Assembly (NCBI GenBank): GCA_963695435.1
Contig: OY968788.1
Span: 477,456 to 541,455 of the forward strand
Reading direction: 5' to 3'
From: an uncultured bacterium
GTDB lineage: Bacteria; Patescibacteriota; Kazan-3B-28
Length of the DNA stretch: 64,000 bases
Shown here: one piece after another, positions 1,595 through 60,510 of the stretch
Layout: every line of letters begins with the position of its first letter
Position numbering within the stretch: the first letter of the stretch is position 1
Program-made: the position numbers and the translations under genes
The notes under the pieces: generated by a model
The model's database searches: none
What the model saw: the letters and a program-made list of their open reading frames with translations, nothing else
Told to the model about the DNA's origin: nothing

Positions 1595-1958
1595 TGGTGG
1601 AGCTGGGGGGATTCGCACCCCCGTCCAGAAAACAATTTTTGAGCGTTACTACATGCGTATTCGGTTTGATTTGGGTCCCTCACCATCCTCAAGCCGACAA
1701 AGCAATGACAAGGCAAGTTACTAAGTCTTAGGCGACAACAGTAACCGTTGCCGCAGCGGCTCAACTAATATTACACCGCTGACCTGCGCGGTTGAGCGCG
1801 CTCAGAAGCGATGGCATCCGCAATTAGGCGAATGCATTTGCGGTACGAAGACCGCCAAATGCGTTGGCATTTGTAGTTTTGTCTGGTTTTGCGTTACAAG
1901 ACATCAACGGCACGCAACTCTCAAAAATTAAGGTTCCCTGTCGAAGCTAGACAGCCCC
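1595..1958 (-). ncRNA. ssrA: tmRNA (ssrA), about 364 nt
   Basis: Minus strand reads 5'-GGGGCUGUCUAGCUUCGACAGGGAACC...GGACGGGGGUGCGAAUCCCCCCAGCUCCACCA-3'. Canonical tRNA-like 5'/3' ends with CCA. In-frame tag-like reading frame ...GCC AAC GCA UUU GGC GGU CUU CGU ACC GCA AAU GCA UUC GCC UAA (ANAFGGLRTANAFA-stop, possibly longer upstream) around 1824-1890. Adjacent to smpB. Confidence 0.85.
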
Positions 1959-50008: not shown

Positions 50009-50082
50009 GGGTCCGTAGCTTAGTGGTAAAGCAGTTGCCTTTTAAGCAATTGATGCAGGTCCGATTCCTGCCGGACCCACCA
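50009..50082 (+). tRNA. tRNA-Lys (anticodon UUU)
   Basis: GGGTCCG acceptor pairs with CGGACCC, D-loop AGTGGTAA, anticodon loop CTTTTAA, T-loop, encoded CCA. Confidence 0.9.
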
Positions 50083-56381: not shown

Positions 56382-57290
56382 TTAGAGTTTGGCTTGAATA
56401 TAGTCGTAGGCTGACAATGCCGCCTTTGCTCCTTCGCCGGCGGCGATAATCATTTGCTTATAAGGAACTGTGGTGGCGTCGCCAGCGGCAAAAATGCCTG
56501 CGCAGGATGTTTTGCCGAATTGGTCAGCAACAATTTCACCTGTCGGGCTAAGGTTTACCAGCCCCTTAAGAAATTCTGATTTAACTGTATGGCCGATGGC
56601 GATGAATATGCCCTCGACCGGTAGTTTCTTTTCTCCCTCGGGAGTATCAATAGTAATTCCCTCGACAAATTTATCACCGACAATCTCCTTGACCGTAGCG
56701 TTCATGACTATCTCAACTTTCGGACTTTGTTTTACCTTCTCGACAAGCATCGGCTCGGCAGAGAACTTATCACCACGATGAACCAAATAAATTTTATTGG
56801 CAACCGGTATTAGTACGGTTGTGGAATACATTGCTCCGTTGCCCCCACCAATTACTGCTACTGGCTTTCCCTCAAAGAACGGGGCATCACAAGTGGCGCA
56901 GTAAACTACACCTTTATTCAAAAATTCTTTTTCTCCTGGCACATCCAAATGACGGTGCTCACTGCCGAACGCCAAAATGATCGCTTTGGCTTGGTAAGTA
57001 TTACTGGGAGTTTGGACAGAAAACCCTTCGGCGGTTTTGGTGACTGAAGTAATTTCATCGGCAACAATTTGAGCGCCAAATTTTTTCGCTTGTGCGGTAA
57101 ATTGGTTCATCAACTCTGGTCCGGTGATTGAATCTACACCCGGATAATTTTCTATGCTCAATGTGGTACTGGCTTGCCCGCCAATTTCTTTGCCAATGAC
57201 CAGTGCTGATAATTTACGGCGACCGGCATAAAGCGCGGCAGTCAGACCTGCGGCGCCAGCGCCGACAACGATTATGTCGTAGCTATTCAT
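56382..57290 (-). CDS. trxB: Thioredoxin-disulfide reductase
   Basis: FAD motif IVVGAGAAG, redox CATC, NADPH motif. Confidence 0.9.
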   Translation of the reverse strand: MNSYDIIVVGAGAAGLTAALYAGRRKLSALVIGKEIGGQASTTLSIENYPGVDSITGPELMNQFTAQAKKFGAQIVADEITSVTKTAEGFSVQTPSNTYQAKAIILAFGSEHRHLDVPGEKEFLNKGVVYCATCDAPFFEGKPVAVIGGGNGAMYSTTVLIPVANKIYLVHRGDKFSAEPMLVEKVKQSPKVEIVMNATVKEIVGDKFVEGITIDTPEGEKKLPVEGIFIAIGHTVKSEFLKGLVNLSPTGEIVADQFGKTSCAGIFAAGDATTVPYKQMIIAAGEGAKAALSAYDYIQAKL

Positions 57291-57367
57291 ATGAAGCCAT
57301 TATAGCAGGATCGCAAAACCCCGCCGACTGGCGGGGTTTTGGCTAATAGTTGGTTTAAGTCTTGAGA

Positions 57368-57670
57368 CTAAAATTCTTCTTCTTCATCCTCTTCTTCATC
57401 TACAAGGTTGGAGGACGCGATAATATTGTCTCCCTCTCCTTCTTCGCCAATGACCTTTGAAATTGGCACAGCGGTGTCTTCTTCCTCACCAATTGTTTCT
57501 TCGGCATCATCGTGAATGGTTGGAGCGGAAGTGTTGTCGGTATAGTCACTGTCGCCAGGGTTACCCATAGGCTTCTGGTCGGCAGTAATTGGATTCAAAT
57601 CTTCATCCATAAGTTTGTTCTTTTTGATTAGATATTTAACTAGTTGTCTCGACCCTCGAGCACACGCCAA
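57368..57670 (-). CDS. Hypothetical highly acidic, probably disordered protein
   Basis: Ends DEEEDEEEEF. True start probably at internal Met (MDEDLNPI). Confidence 0.35.
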   Translation of the reverse strand: MACARGSRQLVKYLIKKNKLMDEDLNPITADQKPMGNPGDSDYTDNTSAPTIHDDAEETIGEEEDTAVPISKVIGEEGEGDNIIASSNLVDEEEDEEEEF

Positions 57671-57922
57671 AAAGTTCAGCCGTGTGCAAATTACTTTTTA
57701 CATACAATGCCGAGTTTATAGATACCCCTAGGGGGTGTCAATAGTGATTTTTCGTTGGTAGCCCGACGGGACATGTTTCCCCATTGCTATGGGGCCCCGC
57801 CGTTCGCCGCATTAGGGTAAACCCAACAAATTTATAGAGCGGTCTCACGCACGAACCCATGCTTCGCAGGGTTCGACTCTTGGTTGACCACCAAAAAACT
57901 CCGATGAATCGGAGTTTTTCGC

Positions 57923-57997
57923 TGGTAGCCCCAACGGGAGTCGAACCCGTCTTTTCAGATTGAAAATCTGACGTCCTAACCGATAGACGATGGGGCC
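57923..57997 (-). tRNA. tRNA-Glu (UUC)
   Basis: Cloverleaf with anticodon loop TTTTCAA. Encoded CCA. Followed by bidirectional terminator hairpin at 57893-57919. Confidence 0.85.
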
Positions 57998-58177
57998 TCG
58001 TCGCAACAGTGTCGCTCTGACGGTCAGCTCGGCAAGTTCGCTGACCTATTGAAGCTTCACGTTGCTCCTCTCGAATTCACAAACAGCCTACGGCTTGGTT
58101 TGTGAATTCGGATTTTTTGCTCAAACCTAAAATAACAAGTTTGAACAATCGCGAGGAATTCTCTGAATGTTAAGTTC

Positions 58178-58252
58178 TGGTGGGCGCAGGAGGATTCGGA
58201 CCTCCAACCAACTGCTTAAGAGGCAGCTGCTCTACCATTGAGCTATGCACCC
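58178..58252 (-). tRNA. tRNA-Lys (CUU)
   Basis: Anticodon loop CTCTTAA, T-arm GGAGGTCCGAATCCTCC, CCA encoded. Confidence 0.85.
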
Positions 58253-58448
58253 TCGTCAGAATGGACTCGACCTTACGCTAACACCTTCGACAAGCTCAGG
58301 GTTGCTTTTAGCCTCGTCATTCCTCCTTTCAAAATCACAAACAGTCGCTTCGCTCCTTGGTTTGTGATTTTGTGTTTGGGTTTTCAAACTAATCCCGATC
58401 CCGAATCTAGCTGGTCTGCAAATCGTCTGCGACGATTCTCGTTCCAAC

Positions 58449-58525
58449 TGGCGCCCCGGGCAGGGATCGGACCTGCGACCTACTGCTTAGAAGGCAGTCG
58501 CTCTAATCCACTGAGCTACCGGGGC
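58449..58525 (-). tRNA. tRNA-Arg (UCU)
   Basis: Anticodon loop CTTCTAA. Acceptor GCCCCGG/CCGGGGC. CCA encoded. Confidence 0.85.
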
Positions 58526-58557
58526 AAATTATATCAACTTATCAATGTTGTCTGCAG

Positions 58558-58633
58558 TGGGGTGAGCGACGCGGATCGAACGCGCGACCGCCTGGACCAC
58601 AACCAGGAGCTCTACCACTGAGCTACGCTCACC
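58558..58633 (-). tRNA. tRNA-His (GUG) with encoded G-1
   Basis: Anticodon loop TTGTGGT. Extra 5' G opposite discriminator C. CCA encoded. Confidence 0.85.
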
Positions 58634-58717
58634 CCACTAAAGACAACTTATTAATTTCCGATGTAGTTTACCTACTTCTTGACCTCACTACAATGCCCTC
58701 AAATTTAACATACTTCA

Positions 58718-58794
58718 TGGTACCCCCGACAGGATTTGAACCTGTGGCCTTTGGAACCGGAATCCAACGCTCTAATCCACTGAGCTACGGGGGC
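58718..58794 (-). tRNA. tRNA-Arg (CCG)
   Basis: Anticodon loop TTCCGGT. CCA encoded. Confidence 0.85.
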
Positions 58795-58890
58795 TAAGAC
58801 ATACGCAAATACATTATCAGTCTAGCACAGCAATTTCAATAAAAATTCCGCCGTGAAGCGGAAAAGTAGGTTGGCAACTATTTGGATATG

Positions 58891-59274
58891 TTAGCAAATG
58901 GGGGAGTGAGTTTCCAGTTGCTTCAATGCGGATTGCATTTCAGCTTTGGTCATTACAAAAAACTGGAGAAAACCTAGTTGCGAAACTTTTAGCCCACGGA
59001 AGATACTTTTACATTCTCTCTCAACCCTTCTTTCCGTCCACTGGGGATAGAGCTCATGCAGGAGCTCATGAATCAGGGTGATAACGCGGTCGTTGATGCC
59101 AATAGCCTTATTAATGTAGATTTTCAATTCATCCGGAACGATGTACCCTTTCGCCCCTCGAGACCGAGCTTGGCTTTTTTTGGGGAGAAGTTTATTTACC
59201 AATATCACCCGATAGCCCGACTGGACTAGGGTACTTTTTAATTTGTTAAAGATAGTTTTTGTGTTGGTTTTCAT
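58891..59274 (-). CDS. Small HExxH-motif protein (putative minimal zinc metallopeptidase; SprT/DUF45/ImmA-like)
   Basis: LIHELLHELYP...E...ECK motif. Own canonical promoter at 59320-59348. Confidence 0.5.
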   Translation of the reverse strand: MKTNTKTIFNKLKSTLVQSGYRVILVNKLLPKKSQARSRGAKGYIVPDELKIYINKAIGINDRVITLIHELLHELYPQWTERRVERECKSIFRGLKVSQLGFLQFFVMTKAEMQSALKQLETHSPIC

Positions 59275-59319
59275 TTTTACTTCAAGGAAGTGGCCCCCGA
59301 AGGTTTTAACTATTATTTG

Positions 59320-59348
59320 ATTATATCATAAAAACCTCACTCCGTCAA
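59320..59348 (-). promoter_or_regulatory. Sigma70-type promoter TTGACG-17-TATAAT for the HExxH gene
   Basis: Minus strand reads cccTTGACGgagtgaggtttttatgaTATAATcaaa. Confidence 0.55.
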
Positions 59349-59570
59349 GGGTAGGAATACTGGCTCTGGGAGTGTTATCCACACAAATTTGATTCTGGAG
59401 CGGGTAGGGGGAAATGTATCCCCATTGCTATGGGGCCCCGCCGTTCGCCGCATTAGGGTAAACCCAACAAATTTATAGAGCAGTCTCACGCACGAACCCA
59501 TGCCTTCGGCAGAATGCGACTGCGCACTACATTCTCCAACGCAAAAATCGGGGCAAGCCCGATTTCGCGT

Positions 59571-59645
59571 TGGAGCGGGTAGGGGGAGTCGAACCCCCGT
59601 CGCCAGTTTGGAAAACTGGAATAATAACCGTTATACGACACCCGC
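59571..59645 (-). tRNA. tRNA-Gly (UCC)
   Basis: Anticodon arm CCAGT-TTTCCAA-ACTGG, T-arm GGGGGTTCGACTCCCCC, CCA encoded, followed by terminator hairpin at 59547-59563. Confidence 0.85.
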
Positions 59646-59702
59646 ACTTCGTTGGATTCTTGCAGGAACCCCCATTAGAATACCAAACACATTGCACAAC
59701 AT

Positions 59703-59731
59703 AAAACTCTTGCCTCTACAGGCAAGAGTTT
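59703..59731 (-). terminator. Terminator hairpin downstream of hup (ctcttgcc-tctaca-ggcaagag flanked by A/T runs)
   Basis: 8-bp stem. U-run on minus strand. Confidence 0.55.
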
Positions 59732-59755
59732 CGCTTTATTCAAAAATTCCTAGAT

Positions 59756-60028
59756 TTAGCCAATCAGCTTGCGTAGGTCCTTACCTGCCTTGAAGCGGGG
59801 GACTTTGCTAGCTGGGATTTTGATAGCCTTACCAGTCTGCGGGTTGACCCCATTGCGTGAAGCCCTAGAGCTCACGGAAAAAGTCCCGAAACCGGTGATG
59901 GTGACCTTCTTGCCTTTGACCAAATTGTCCTTGATGCTGTCGACGAAAAGGTCTACAGCGCGAGTAGCTGACTTCTTGGACAAATTAGCCTTGCTGGCAA
60001 TCAGTTCGATTAATTGCGACTTATTCAT
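59756..60028 (-). CDS. hup: DNA-binding protein HU
   Basis: 90-aa HU/IHF fold with conserved GFGTF...R..RNP..G arm. Start at internal Met MNKSQL. Confidence 0.9.
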   Translation of the reverse strand: MNKSQLIELIASKANLSKKSATRAVDLFVDSIKDNLVKGKKVTITGFGTFSVSSRASRNGVNPQTGKAIKIPASKVPRFKAGKDLRKLIG

Positions 60029-60108
60029 TCCACCTCCCGATGGGTCAAAACCAATATCGACCCCATTGTAGAAAGCCACGCCCAATCTGTCAAATACTTT
60101 TTTTGGGC

Positions 60109-60510
60109 CTAGATTTTCCCCAGCCACCCCTCCAAAATAAACTGGGCAGAAATAGCATCAATACTGGCCGTACTTTCTGGGTGTTTTTGCAAATATTTGG
60201 CCGCCGATTGGGTGGTAAATCGCTCATCTTCTAAAATAATTTCTGTTGCTATTGCGTCGCGTAGCGTTTCTACTAATTCTTTTACTTTGTGCGCTTGAGT
60301 ACCATGCTGGCCAGTGACAGTAATCGGCAGACCAATAACGATTTTAGAAAAATTATATTGCTGCTGCAGCAATAGCAATTGTTCAACCAACGAATGATTA
60401 TTGGGTAAGTCGGACAGGGGAGTAGCAGTGCGGGTAATCGTGTTGCCGATTGCTGTACCAATGTGGCGGTCCCCAATATCCAAACCTAAAACGATAGTTG
60501 GATCTATCAT
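60109..60510 (-). CDS. ruvX: Putative pre-16S rRNA nuclease / Holliday junction resolvase-like YqgF (RuvX)
   Basis: N-terminal VLGLDIGDRHIGTAIG RNase H-like motif. Confidence 0.8.
   Translation of the reverse strand: MIDPTIVLGLDIGDRHIGTAIGNTITRTATPLSDLPNNHSLVEQLLLLQQQYNFSKIVIGLPITVTGQHGTQAHKVKELVETLRDAIATEIILEDERFTTQSAAKYLQKHPESTASIDAISAQFILEGWLGKI

Follow-up and report, generated by a model that had tools for sequence, protein, structure and literature searches.

Small structured units adjoining the 3' ends of tRNA genes in Patescibacteria

The window, by which we mean the whole 64,000-nucleotide stretch of DNA that was analysed, is a chromosomal segment of a Patescibacteria (CPR) bacterium carrying housekeeping genes for MetRS, RecX, TrxB, HU, RuvX, an FtsA-like protein, RuvB, RNase Y and MnmA, as well as a tmRNA gene. 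On its minus strand lies a cluster composed, in order, of tRNA-Gly, an open reading frame termed ORF127, and tRNA-Arg, tRNA-His, tRNA-Arg, tRNA-Lys and tRNA-Glu. Two genes of this cluster host the units described here: tRNA-Glu(UUC) at 57923-57997 on the minus strand, which is intact with an encoded CCA (ARAGORN; Rfam tRNA model, 62.9 bits), is followed by copy 1, and tRNA-Gly(UCC) at 59571-59645 on the minus strand (ARAGORN and Rfam) is followed by copy 2. Syntenic loci of relatives, numbered with an L below, were retrieved via homologues of HU and ORF127, and an identical HU protein is encoded on contigs of MAGs labelled either Kazan-3B-28 or "uncultured Ca. Saccharibacteria". ORF127 (58891-59274), which adjoins copy 2, encodes a conserved HExxH protein with a weak DUF6782 match and an IrrE-like name in one source; as it is present in unit-carrying and unit-free genomes alike, it was rejected as a part of the element. 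The tRNA-Gly gene is also a hotspot for other insertions in L021-L024. Between tRNA-Gly and ORF127, L021-L023 carry a gene of 301-313 aa for which no Pfam match is on record, and no recombinase motif was noticed in its DNA when read by eye.

Each unit measures about 175 nt and lies downstream of its tRNA gene. Read on the tRNA strand, the intact tRNA (positions 1-76) is followed by a terminator-like palindrome (T) with complementary A- and T-rich arms, an inverted partial tRNA copy (A'), a hairpin of 3-5 bp whose loop is often GAA (C2), 1-5 nt matching the 5' strand of the local T-stem, the motif GGTTCG, a conserved core of about 80-85 nt, and a second copy of tRNA positions 58/60-76, after which come 0-8 nt of trailer and then the ancestral downstream flank. 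In copy 1, T occupies 57894-57922 (inverted repeat I4) and is a bidirectional terminator-like palindrome by its predicted folds, with an A-tract (57894-98), a stem ctccga/tcggag (57899-57904 and 57909-57914) and a T-tract (57915-19); the lower part of the stem continues into A' and the 3' end of the tRNA. A' itself (57869-57893; gggttcgactcttggttgaccacca on the plus strand, in tRNA sense) is a degenerate inverted copy of tRNA-Glu positions ~50-76 and aligns best to tRNA-Glu among nine tRNA 3' halves. The small hairpin C2 (tgc-ttc-gca, 57860-57868) links A' to the core, which lies on the minus strand at 57774-57857, reads GGTTCG...GGGGAAACA and scored 107.8 bits (E 2e-23) with our covariance model R1. 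The distal duplicate of tRNA-Glu 60-76 plus 8 nt of trailer (57748-57771, minus strand, repeat family D15) reads tttttcg-ttggtagcccgacggga, and the proximal copy at 57915-57939 reads tttttcg-ctggtagccccaacggga (tttttcgctggtagccccaacggga on the plus strand). The two copies of this direct repeat, 24 versus 25 nt long, differ by one indel and two substitutions and span TGG (the CCA complement) and cgaaaaa, with bases 57772-57773 at the junction standing in for A58/C59.

In copy 2, the left part (59501-59570) comprises C2 (tgcc-ttc-ggca, 59501-59511), A' (59512-59538) and the T palindrome (59539-59570, inverted repeat I6), whose stem likewise runs into the tRNA end in the predicted fold. The core at 59415-59498 (minus strand) scored 104.6 bits with R1, and a perfect 17-nt duplicate of tRNA-Gly 60-76 follows on the same strand (59396-59412 = 59571-59587; chance expectation 0.01). 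The cores of both copies fall within a 95-nt repeat, D1 (57768-57862 = 59409-59503), at 97% identity, and the window contains exactly two occurrences of a 30-mer taken from it, against 0 expected in shuffles. C2 is homologous between units, its stems showing compensatory changes when read directly from the sequences (tgc/gca, tgcc/ggca, acc/ggt, ttggc/gccaa). A first-pass annotation, made from the sequence alone, had described four things, all of which are present, its coordinates being off by 1-11 nt. The duplicate of the tRNA-Glu 3' end, placed at 57758-57774, is real; the block shared with the tRNA-Gly locus, given as 57779-57862 and about 95% identical, has the wider bounds and higher identity of D1; and the inverted segment resembling a tRNA 3' half, given as 57858-57892, corresponds to A'. 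In the Lys-CTT units of two relatives (L017 and L024), T, A' and C2 are absent and a spacer of 21-23 nt stands in their place.

The window was compared with loci lacking the insertion, as the first-pass annotation had proposed for defining attB and attP. In L017 and L019 the Glu site is empty, and ...GGGGCTGCCA runs straight into aacaaaaatcactattgacaccccc, which in a base-for-base alignment is also what follows the distal Glu duplicate in the window. In L007 the Gly site is empty and the flank ...tatccacataaattcgactg adjoins tRNA-Gly itself; in the window, the same flank adjoins the distal 17-mer. The tRNA-Gly genes of L019 and L036 have no unit either, the Arg-TCT site is empty in L019 and filled in L026 with the same MGMT-like gene downstream in both, and the Lys-CTT and Lys-UUU genes are unit-free in some relatives. 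As related genomes have empty Gly, Glu and Arg-TCT sites by flank alignment, the ~175 nt are an insertion or deletion polymorphism, and as the distal duplicate abuts the ancestral flank, it occupies the former place of the ancestral tRNA 3' end. The tRNA-Glu gene of L024 is followed by a terminator hairpin T like that of the window, with no unit at all.

The real junction is not at the end of the tRNA but inside the T-loop. There the core follows GGTTCG and interrupts the partial tRNA copy at its G57/A58 bond or no more than 2 nt away, and the complete tRNA gene is kept beside this interrupted copy. Two copies have a clean G57/A58 junction, namely the Ile copy of L009 (GGTTCG/...GGGGAAACA/ATTCCAGG, slashes marking the edges of the core) and the Gly copy of L026 (GGTTCG/core ending ...GGGGATACA/ACTCCCCC). 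In the remaining copies 2-3 junction bases are mutated, and positions 58-60 beside the core are often changed (TG, TT, GC, CTG). Direct repeats of the tRNA 3' portion, 17-25 nt long, bound the insertion at Glu, Gly, Ile, Lys-CTT, Lys-UUU and Arg-TCT genes; their inner edge is constant at the T-loop and their outer edge variable, giving duplications of 17 nt (Gly in the window, Lys-CTT in L017), 19 nt (L021), 22 nt (Ile) and 24/25 nt (Glu). The cores at Glu and Gly in the window and at Ile in another genome (L009) are 97-98% identical; T and A' cannot be aligned among these three, and each duplication matches its own tRNA. In L017, a twin hairpin of 20 nt breaks into the tRNA-like 3' segment. 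Conserved terminal inverted repeats were not found in the units, whose sole inverted repeats, between A' and the tRNA end, derive from the tRNA.

The distribution of the family was surveyed with nhmmer and R1 over about 260-380 kb, comprising the window and the fetched loci. R1 gave 14 matches in 260 kb, and all 14 lie directly downstream of a tRNA gene, at six tRNA species (Glu, Gly, Ile, Lys-CTT, Lys-UUU and Arg-TCT) in at least six genomes; these matches include the same pair of copies twice (overlapping contigs L026 and L028) and three partial or truncated ones, the evidence base being about 11 distinct copies from one clade. The recurrence next to other tRNA genes that the first-pass annotation had suggested looking for is thus borne out, and no copy was found at any non-tRNA site, many of which would have spoken against its proposal. 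Besides Glu and Gly in the window, units follow Ile in L009, Gly in L021 and L033, Gly and Arg-TCT in L026, and Lys-CTT in L024, which also has a degenerate Gly remnant; L017 has a Lys-CTT unit, three tandem units after Lys-UUU and a degenerate Gly remnant. The tRNA-Lys(UUU) gene is inverted in L017. Neither nhmmer nor R1 detected units in the fetched loci of the more distant relatives L029-L032 or of some close relatives (L019, L007, L035-37). When GTDB species genomes, JGI metagenomes and IMG/VR were scanned with degenerate motifs, a true match came only from the MAG of L001/L009, and the sample is small because these scans found the family in only that one other MAG; seven other loci from the scans were dismissed as chance matches with neither tRNA nor block. 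A blastn search of the unit against phage and plasmid collections gave no match, an Rfam cmscan of 57000-60200 on both strands (E<=1) returned tRNAs and chance matches only, and no description of such an element was found in the literature searched. We tentatively regard the family as lineage-restricted, made up of small non-coding units of ~175 nt on the 3' side of tRNA genes in one Patescibacteria clade.

With RNAalifold run on eight copies and pairs counted on a covariance-model alignment of 12 distinct rows, the core resolves into three helices in which eight pairs are changed on both sides (24 cells), a value reached by 0/500 shuffles, with slid controls giving 0-1. The compensatory changes include CGU/ACG, CAU/AUG, UGC/GCA, CGC/GCG and CAC/GUG; CCGC/GCGG, CUGC/GCAG and CCAC/GUGG; and CCCCAU/AUGGGG, CCCCAC/GUGGGG, CCCCGU/ACGGGG and CCCCGC/GCGGGG. 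Conservation extends to the loop motif CTATAAATTTGTTG, a hairpin is found 5 nt before the core end, and extra hairpins that differ between L021 and L017b are inserted at one shared, tolerated position. A helix GUUCG/CGAAC that was proposed initially was replaced by the covarying CGU/ACG helix in the RNAalifold analysis. The core is thus a structured nucleic acid and not a mere spacer between att sites. The tRNA-sense strand folds better in 8/8 copies, by 1.4-7.4 kcal/mol, and the Gly copy of the window has a U.G intermediate on the path from CCGC/GCGG to CUGC/GCAG among copies at the same tRNA-Gly site. These predicted folds lean towards, and are not proof of, a core that acts on the tRNA-sense strand, as Watson-Crick covariation does not distinguish the strands and would be just as compatible with single-stranded DNA. 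A tRNA-like (tmRNA-like) fold of a plus-strand transcript was rejected on inspection for poor acceptor pairing. Pairing of the loop motif UUUGUUGG with the CCA and trailer is suggestive in Glu and in Gly of L021 and L026, and is AU-rich and inconsistent. A promoter scan found none inside the units on either strand, and the only good promoters nearby are those of downstream genes, in the ancestral flank.

One alternative is that the units are by-products of replication or repair, in which snap-back template switching at highly transcribed tRNA genes would have produced the direct-inverted-direct copies of the tRNA 3' part and left the block as functionless templated filler. A tRNA 3' part followed by an inverted and then a direct copy, with two small palindromic centres (T and C2), is the pattern expected of tandem inversion duplications as described by Kugelberg and Roth. 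The lineage also has many small hairpin insertions (the optional hairpins, the twin mini-hairpins, a repeat termed rep2 that is described below, and T alone in L024), and the inverted tRNA-Lys(UUU) of L017 points the same way. Yet the same core of ~85 nt, with its conserved structure and covariation, recurs at six tRNAs, no partial tRNA duplication lacking a core was found among ~40 tRNA loci, and C2 is homologous between units instead of being derived from each tRNA. As a full explanation, this account is refuted by the covariation, and we consider it very improbable.

A search for an enzyme was made with Pfam on 20 ORFs of the window, among which no integrase, transposase, TnpA, TnpB, reverse transcriptase, RNA-guided nuclease or Cas1 was found. 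Precomputed Pfam assignments for the genes around the related loci contained no integrase or other recombinase, transposase, TnpA or TnpB, reverse transcriptase or RNA-guided nuclease, and listed housekeeping genes only. We know of no autonomous relative of the core. These results weigh on the possibility that the units are classical site-specific integrative elements or their scars, for which a tyrosine recombinase encoded elsewhere would recombine the tRNA T-arm with a small circle whose attP bears the tRNA 3' end; the conserved block would then serve as the arm region, and the units would descend, in miniature or by deletion, from islands that integrate at tRNAs. The direct repeats of the tRNA 3' end flanking the insertion would be expected, the inner boundary falls in the T-loop, a known integrase crossover sublocation (Williams 2002), and the tRNA-Gly gene is the hotspot for other insertions in L021-L024 noted above. 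In addition, the tandem units resemble the successive integrations of tycheposons, an integrase-based analogue in which older units are pushed outward (bioRxiv 10.1101/2020.12.28.424599).

The missing integrase among the window ORFs and related-locus genes is, however, one of several difficulties for such an origin. One core type is found at three tRNAs with cognate repeats, and near-identical cores at several tRNAs, each with its own duplication of 17-25 nt, argue against a fixed attP. A fixed attP inserted in different tRNAs would produce chimeric tRNAs. Repeats are anywhere between 17 and 25 nt long, the partial tRNA on the distal side is broken inside the T-loop and has no intact overlap region, and the block shows base-pair covariation, which arm-type protein sites in double-stranded DNA do not need. 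We therefore regard a classical integrative origin as unlikely. Of the "miniature integrative element" put forward by the first-pass annotation, the insertion relative to empty sites, the recurrence at tRNA genes only and the tandem array hold up, while the fixed attP, the position of the junction and the cognate tyrosine integrase, which was not found among the 20 window ORFs scanned or the genes of related loci, are unsupported or need revision.

The 17-19 nt that are complementary, on the plus strand, to the tRNA 3' end might also be taken for a primer-binding site of a retroelement; alternatively, target-primed reverse transcription might insert the unit, the first nick being fixed in the T-loop and the second variable. 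A retroviral primer-binding site spans a tRNA from its CCA back to position 58-60, which is the span of the segment here, and the combination of a fixed inner edge, a variable outer edge and a messy 5' side (T and A') resembles a target-primed insertion. Nevertheless, neither a long terminal repeat nor a reverse transcriptase gene was found to accompany this segment, the 20 ORFs scanned in the window and the related loci yielding no reverse transcriptase. Because the segment runs directly into the ancestral flank, it is the target itself and not a primer-binding site brought by the element. Folding moreover favours the tRNA-sense strand, and the cognate A' is left unexplained, so that we give a retroelement-type origin very little weight.

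The histories of individual units are varied. A' is cognate to the local tRNA in the Glu copy of the window, the Gly copies of L026 and L021 and the third Lys-UUU unit of L017, and weakly so in the Gly copy of the window; it is non-cognate in the Ile copy of L009, the Arg copy of L026 and the first two Lys-UUU units of L017. As only around one unit in two has a cognate A', and A' has in every case diverged much further than the direct duplicate, a single insertion followed by neutral decay is insufficient to account for it. The A' segments of the L009 Ile unit and the second Lys-UUU unit of L017 look alike by eye. Adenine-specific differences of the DGR type were not seen between A' and tRNA. 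The Gly units of L021 and L026 have T in common, and some units are therefore old and vertically inherited. In the Lys-CTT units, the partial copy carries the T-stem variant of its own tRNA (GAAGG/CCTTC in L017, GGAGG/CCTCC in L024), and in the Gly units the corresponding bases are CCCGC (L021) and CCCCC (window and L026). In the Gly remnants of L017 and L024, a different repeat, rep2, is inserted between tRNA and unit, and the core is decayed in both. The shared T and the co-evolving Lys-CTT copies fit a functional RNA retained by the host as well as they fit a selfish element, and the high core identity within one genome may be due to gene conversion and need not point to recent transposition.

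A structured small RNA linked to the tRNA and retained by the host, either a gene of its own or a product of the tRNA 3' trailer, is the alternative that we take most seriously, although we consider it on the whole improbable. Such an RNA would consist of the conserved scaffold, a hairpin, an AAACA linker and the 17-19 nt tRNA 3' end, and might by analogy with TnpB omega-RNA or Cas12 crRNA be guide- or decoy-like, recognising the tRNA gene with GGTTCG as a TAM or mimicking the tRNA 3' end; presence and absence would reflect vertical inheritance with easy loss between the direct repeats. It is favoured by the compensatory changes among Gly units at the same locus (window, L026, L021, L033), with the U.G intermediate on the sense strand, by partial tRNA copies that track their own tRNA (the T-stems of the Lys-CTT and Gly units), and by the contrast of fast-evolving T, A' and spacers with a conserved core and 3' tRNA segment. 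The decay of the core where rep2 parts it from the tRNA, and the layout of 3' hairpin, linker and 19 nt, which is read directly from the sequences, also speak for it. On the other hand, no partner protein and no promoter were found in the searches described above, and a terminator lies between tRNA and unit. The frequent mutations at positions 58-60 beside the core would strike a guide seed, and the 20-nt twin hairpin of L017 sits inside the tRNA-like 3' segment. Cores that are 97-98% identical at different tRNAs, together with an array of three units, look like proliferation, and the closely related genome L019 is entirely free of units. An RNA kept in place by selection and a selfish element that is repeatedly renewed are non-exclusive readings.

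Building on the anatomy, the insertion polymorphism, the exclusive tRNA linkage, the covarying structure and the tandem array established above, we tentatively favour the hypothesis that the core and C2 form a non-autonomous mobile module, acting as folded RNA or single-stranded DNA, that targets the near-universal T-loop sequence. The acting strand is more likely the tRNA-sense strand, and the core may move on its own. In this proposal the mobile module would comprise C2, GGTTCG and the core, and its target would be the T-loop. A first break would occur at the fixed T-loop position G57/A58 and a second at a variable position just beyond the tRNA 3' end, and fill-in would duplicate positions 58-76 and 0-8 further nt (17-25 nt), leaving the tRNA functional. 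A trans-acting enzyme would be required, for which the ORFs scanned offer no candidate, and loss through recombination between the two direct repeats would regenerate empty sites. The precise 3' junction, ragged 5' side and variable duplication resemble target-primed or staggered-cut insertion, the layout of hairpin, linker and 19 nt is like that of an omega-RNA or crRNA guide for which GGTTCG would take the place of the TAM, and the direct-inverted-direct arrangement resembles snap-back repair; the tandem array is as expected for repeated insertions at one site. Confidence in the mechanism is moderate to low because it is drawn from about 11 copies of one clade and involves a putative enzyme and putative expression. 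We class the unit as a small mobile or repeat element targeting tRNA genes, with no described match in Rfam, the collections or the literature searched.

A more specific version of this mobile module, which we consider doubtful, is that the core is the RNA or single-stranded DNA component of an undescribed nucleic-acid-guided mobile system of CPR bacteria. A scaffold of ~85-105 nt and the 17-19-nt tRNA 3' copy, sometimes preceded by an antisense tRNA-like arm, would direct insertion into the T-loop, and the tRNA gene would be rebuilt by duplication of its 3' end, making the unit a programmable tRNA-homing element with a scaffold class of its own. The chance that the unit represents either a new nucleic-acid-guided system or a new class of tRNA-linked structured RNA is small but real. 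Should the module be mobile, it would point to a way of targeting and insertion so far undescribed in bacteria, in a phylum whose genomes are reduced; should it instead be a retained RNA, it would belong to a new class of structured RNAs linked to tRNAs, with a 3' end that imitates or addresses the neighbouring tRNA. In both cases, the covariance model and the defined empty and filled sites can be used for tests in metagenomes and metatranscriptomes.

tRNA genes are classic landing sites of mobile DNA, and several known systems share features with the units. Like P4/SaPI-like islands and tycheposons, the units are inserted at the 3' part of a tRNA, flanked by a complete tRNA and, at the far side, by a partial 3' repeat, and as with tRNA-targeting tyrosine-integrase elements, arrays can form by successive integrations and the T-loop is a known crossover region. 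Unlike such elements, the unit is only ~175 nt long with no integrase detected in the ORFs and loci scanned, it occupies several tRNA species with cognate repeats of variable length, its distal partial tRNA is split in the T-loop by a structured module, and it has an inverted tRNA-like arm. It also differs from a MITE, as conserved terminal inverted repeats are lacking and the duplication is 17-25 nt rather than of fixed length. It partly resembles IS200/IS605 PATEs, with a core directly 3' of a short motif (GGTTCG), no duplication at the level of the T-loop and a subterminal hairpin 5 nt from the end, and the TnpB omega-RNA in the order of scaffold, hairpin and then ~19 nt of flanking target. 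In contrast to IS200/IS605, no TnpA or TnpB was found in the genes scanned, the copies all lie at tRNA-derived sites and not at every TTCG, the left end lacks a counterpart of the right-end hairpin, the whole unit sits inside a target duplication of 17-25 nt, and Rfam gives no match.

Type V-K CASTs likewise use the tRNA 3' end, carrying a short tRNA-matching spacer (~17 nt), and casposons duplicate it, with duplications of 14-15 bp; Cas12k, TnsBC, TniQ, Cas1, conserved terminal inverted repeats and a fixed duplication length are all absent here, and the tRNA-matching segment is the original target joined to the flank, not a spacer inside the element as in V-K CASTs. Non-canonical tRNA introns and the split or permuted tRNA genes of Archaea and red algae also interrupt the T-loop region, with complementary or inverted segments flanking the pieces, but the interrupted copy here is a 3' fragment (~50-76) beside an intact gene, has no evident bulge-helix-bulge and is bacterial. 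Tandem inversion duplications have the tRNA 3' part direct, inverted and direct again with short palindromic junctions, and differ from the units in that these always hold a conserved, covarying module of ~85 nt in the distal copy, with C2 homologous between loci. To our knowledge, the cases known at tRNA sites depend either on an integrase with a fixed attP or on targeting by a protein or CRISPR module. The units instead have a very small module, structured and protein-less, that is linked to the T-loop, the most conserved tRNA sequence, and occurs at six tRNAs, each of which has its own 3' end duplicated and its gene surviving.

A second repeat family, rep2, distinct from the ~175-nt unit inserted downstream of tRNA genes, is 60-115 nt long and carries 9-bp terminal inverted repeats (GTCTTCGCT...AGCGAAGAC). 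Its copies are inserted right behind a CCA, either that of a tRNA gene or that of a displaced tRNA 3' end, and a conserved tgccctgcgtagc..gggc comes after them. Among the loci fetched from related MAGs, rep2 was found on the minus strand of L001 (10447-10560, 11541-11650 and 12280-12395), in L022 (8780-8840), in L021 (8717-8808) and twice in L024 (8898-9010 and 11009-11080); it is absent from the window.

In the MAG comprising L001, L017 and L009 there is a 22-nt twin mini-hairpin, NCCCgaaGGGN NCCCtttGGGN. All four copies (L017 11411-11432, 19867-19888 and 20136-20157; L009 2555-2576) fall within tRNA-linked units, where they occupy the core, the loop of the core's 3' hairpin or the duplicated tRNA segment, and none was found elsewhere in ~24 kb, in the window or in the other loci scanned. 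The twin mini-hairpin has the look of a very small insertion module in its own right, or of an expansion segment.

In the NCBI MAG, runs of N (L001 12509-12615 and L018 19972-20100) fall on the tRNA loci Glu and Lys-UUU, which bear units or are prone to them; both are resolved in the ENA contig L017. Evidently the repeats of such loci break short-read assemblies, and the unit family is therefore probably under-represented in MAGs.

The tRNA-Lys(UUU) gene, together with the TTGACA-17-TAAAAT promoter that belongs to it, is inverted in L017 (19628-19701) relative to the window (50009-50082), L019 and L021, and it is at this inverted locus that the three tandem units of L017 sit. Part of the 5' half of tRNA-Lys(CTT) is duplicated a short way upstream of that gene (L017 11200-11240, L024 10780-10826). 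In both loci the gene ends ...GCGCCCAC|CC and does not encode CCA, which is present in the displaced downstream 3' copy.

Downstream of tRNA-Lys(CTT) and tRNA-Arg(TCT) in the window are two related long hairpins (58062-58115 and 58320-58377; gaattcacaaac...gtttgtgaattc and aaatcacaaac...gtttgtgatttt), which make up a further small family of repeated palindromes (repeats D7 and D9) within the tRNA cluster. Around tRNA-His, leader and trailer (58547-58568 / 58626-58647) are complementary over 22 nt (91%), prolonging the acceptor stem in what may be a processing helix. The tag peptide predicted for the tmRNA gene of the window (1595-1958, minus strand), ANAFGGLRTANAFA, is unusual; no unit adjoins this gene.

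At a locus shared by L022 and L023, the usual tRNA-Gly is replaced by a divergent tRNA-Gly (L022 8706-8779), and an HTH-containing ORF (L022 8040-8720, plus strand; 226 aa in the Pfam scan) extends into the 5' end of this tRNA. HTH was the sole domain detected by that scan, and the ORF contains a LAGLIDADG-like motif, LGLGIYIGEGS; it may encode a homing endonuclease that is free-standing and travels with the tRNA gene. In L009, where tRNA-Ile and tRNA-Ala are divergently oriented, two LAGLIDADG-type ORFs upstream of the tRNA-Ile unit (687-1238 and 1436-2014) are probably endonucleases encoded by introns of an rRNA gene.
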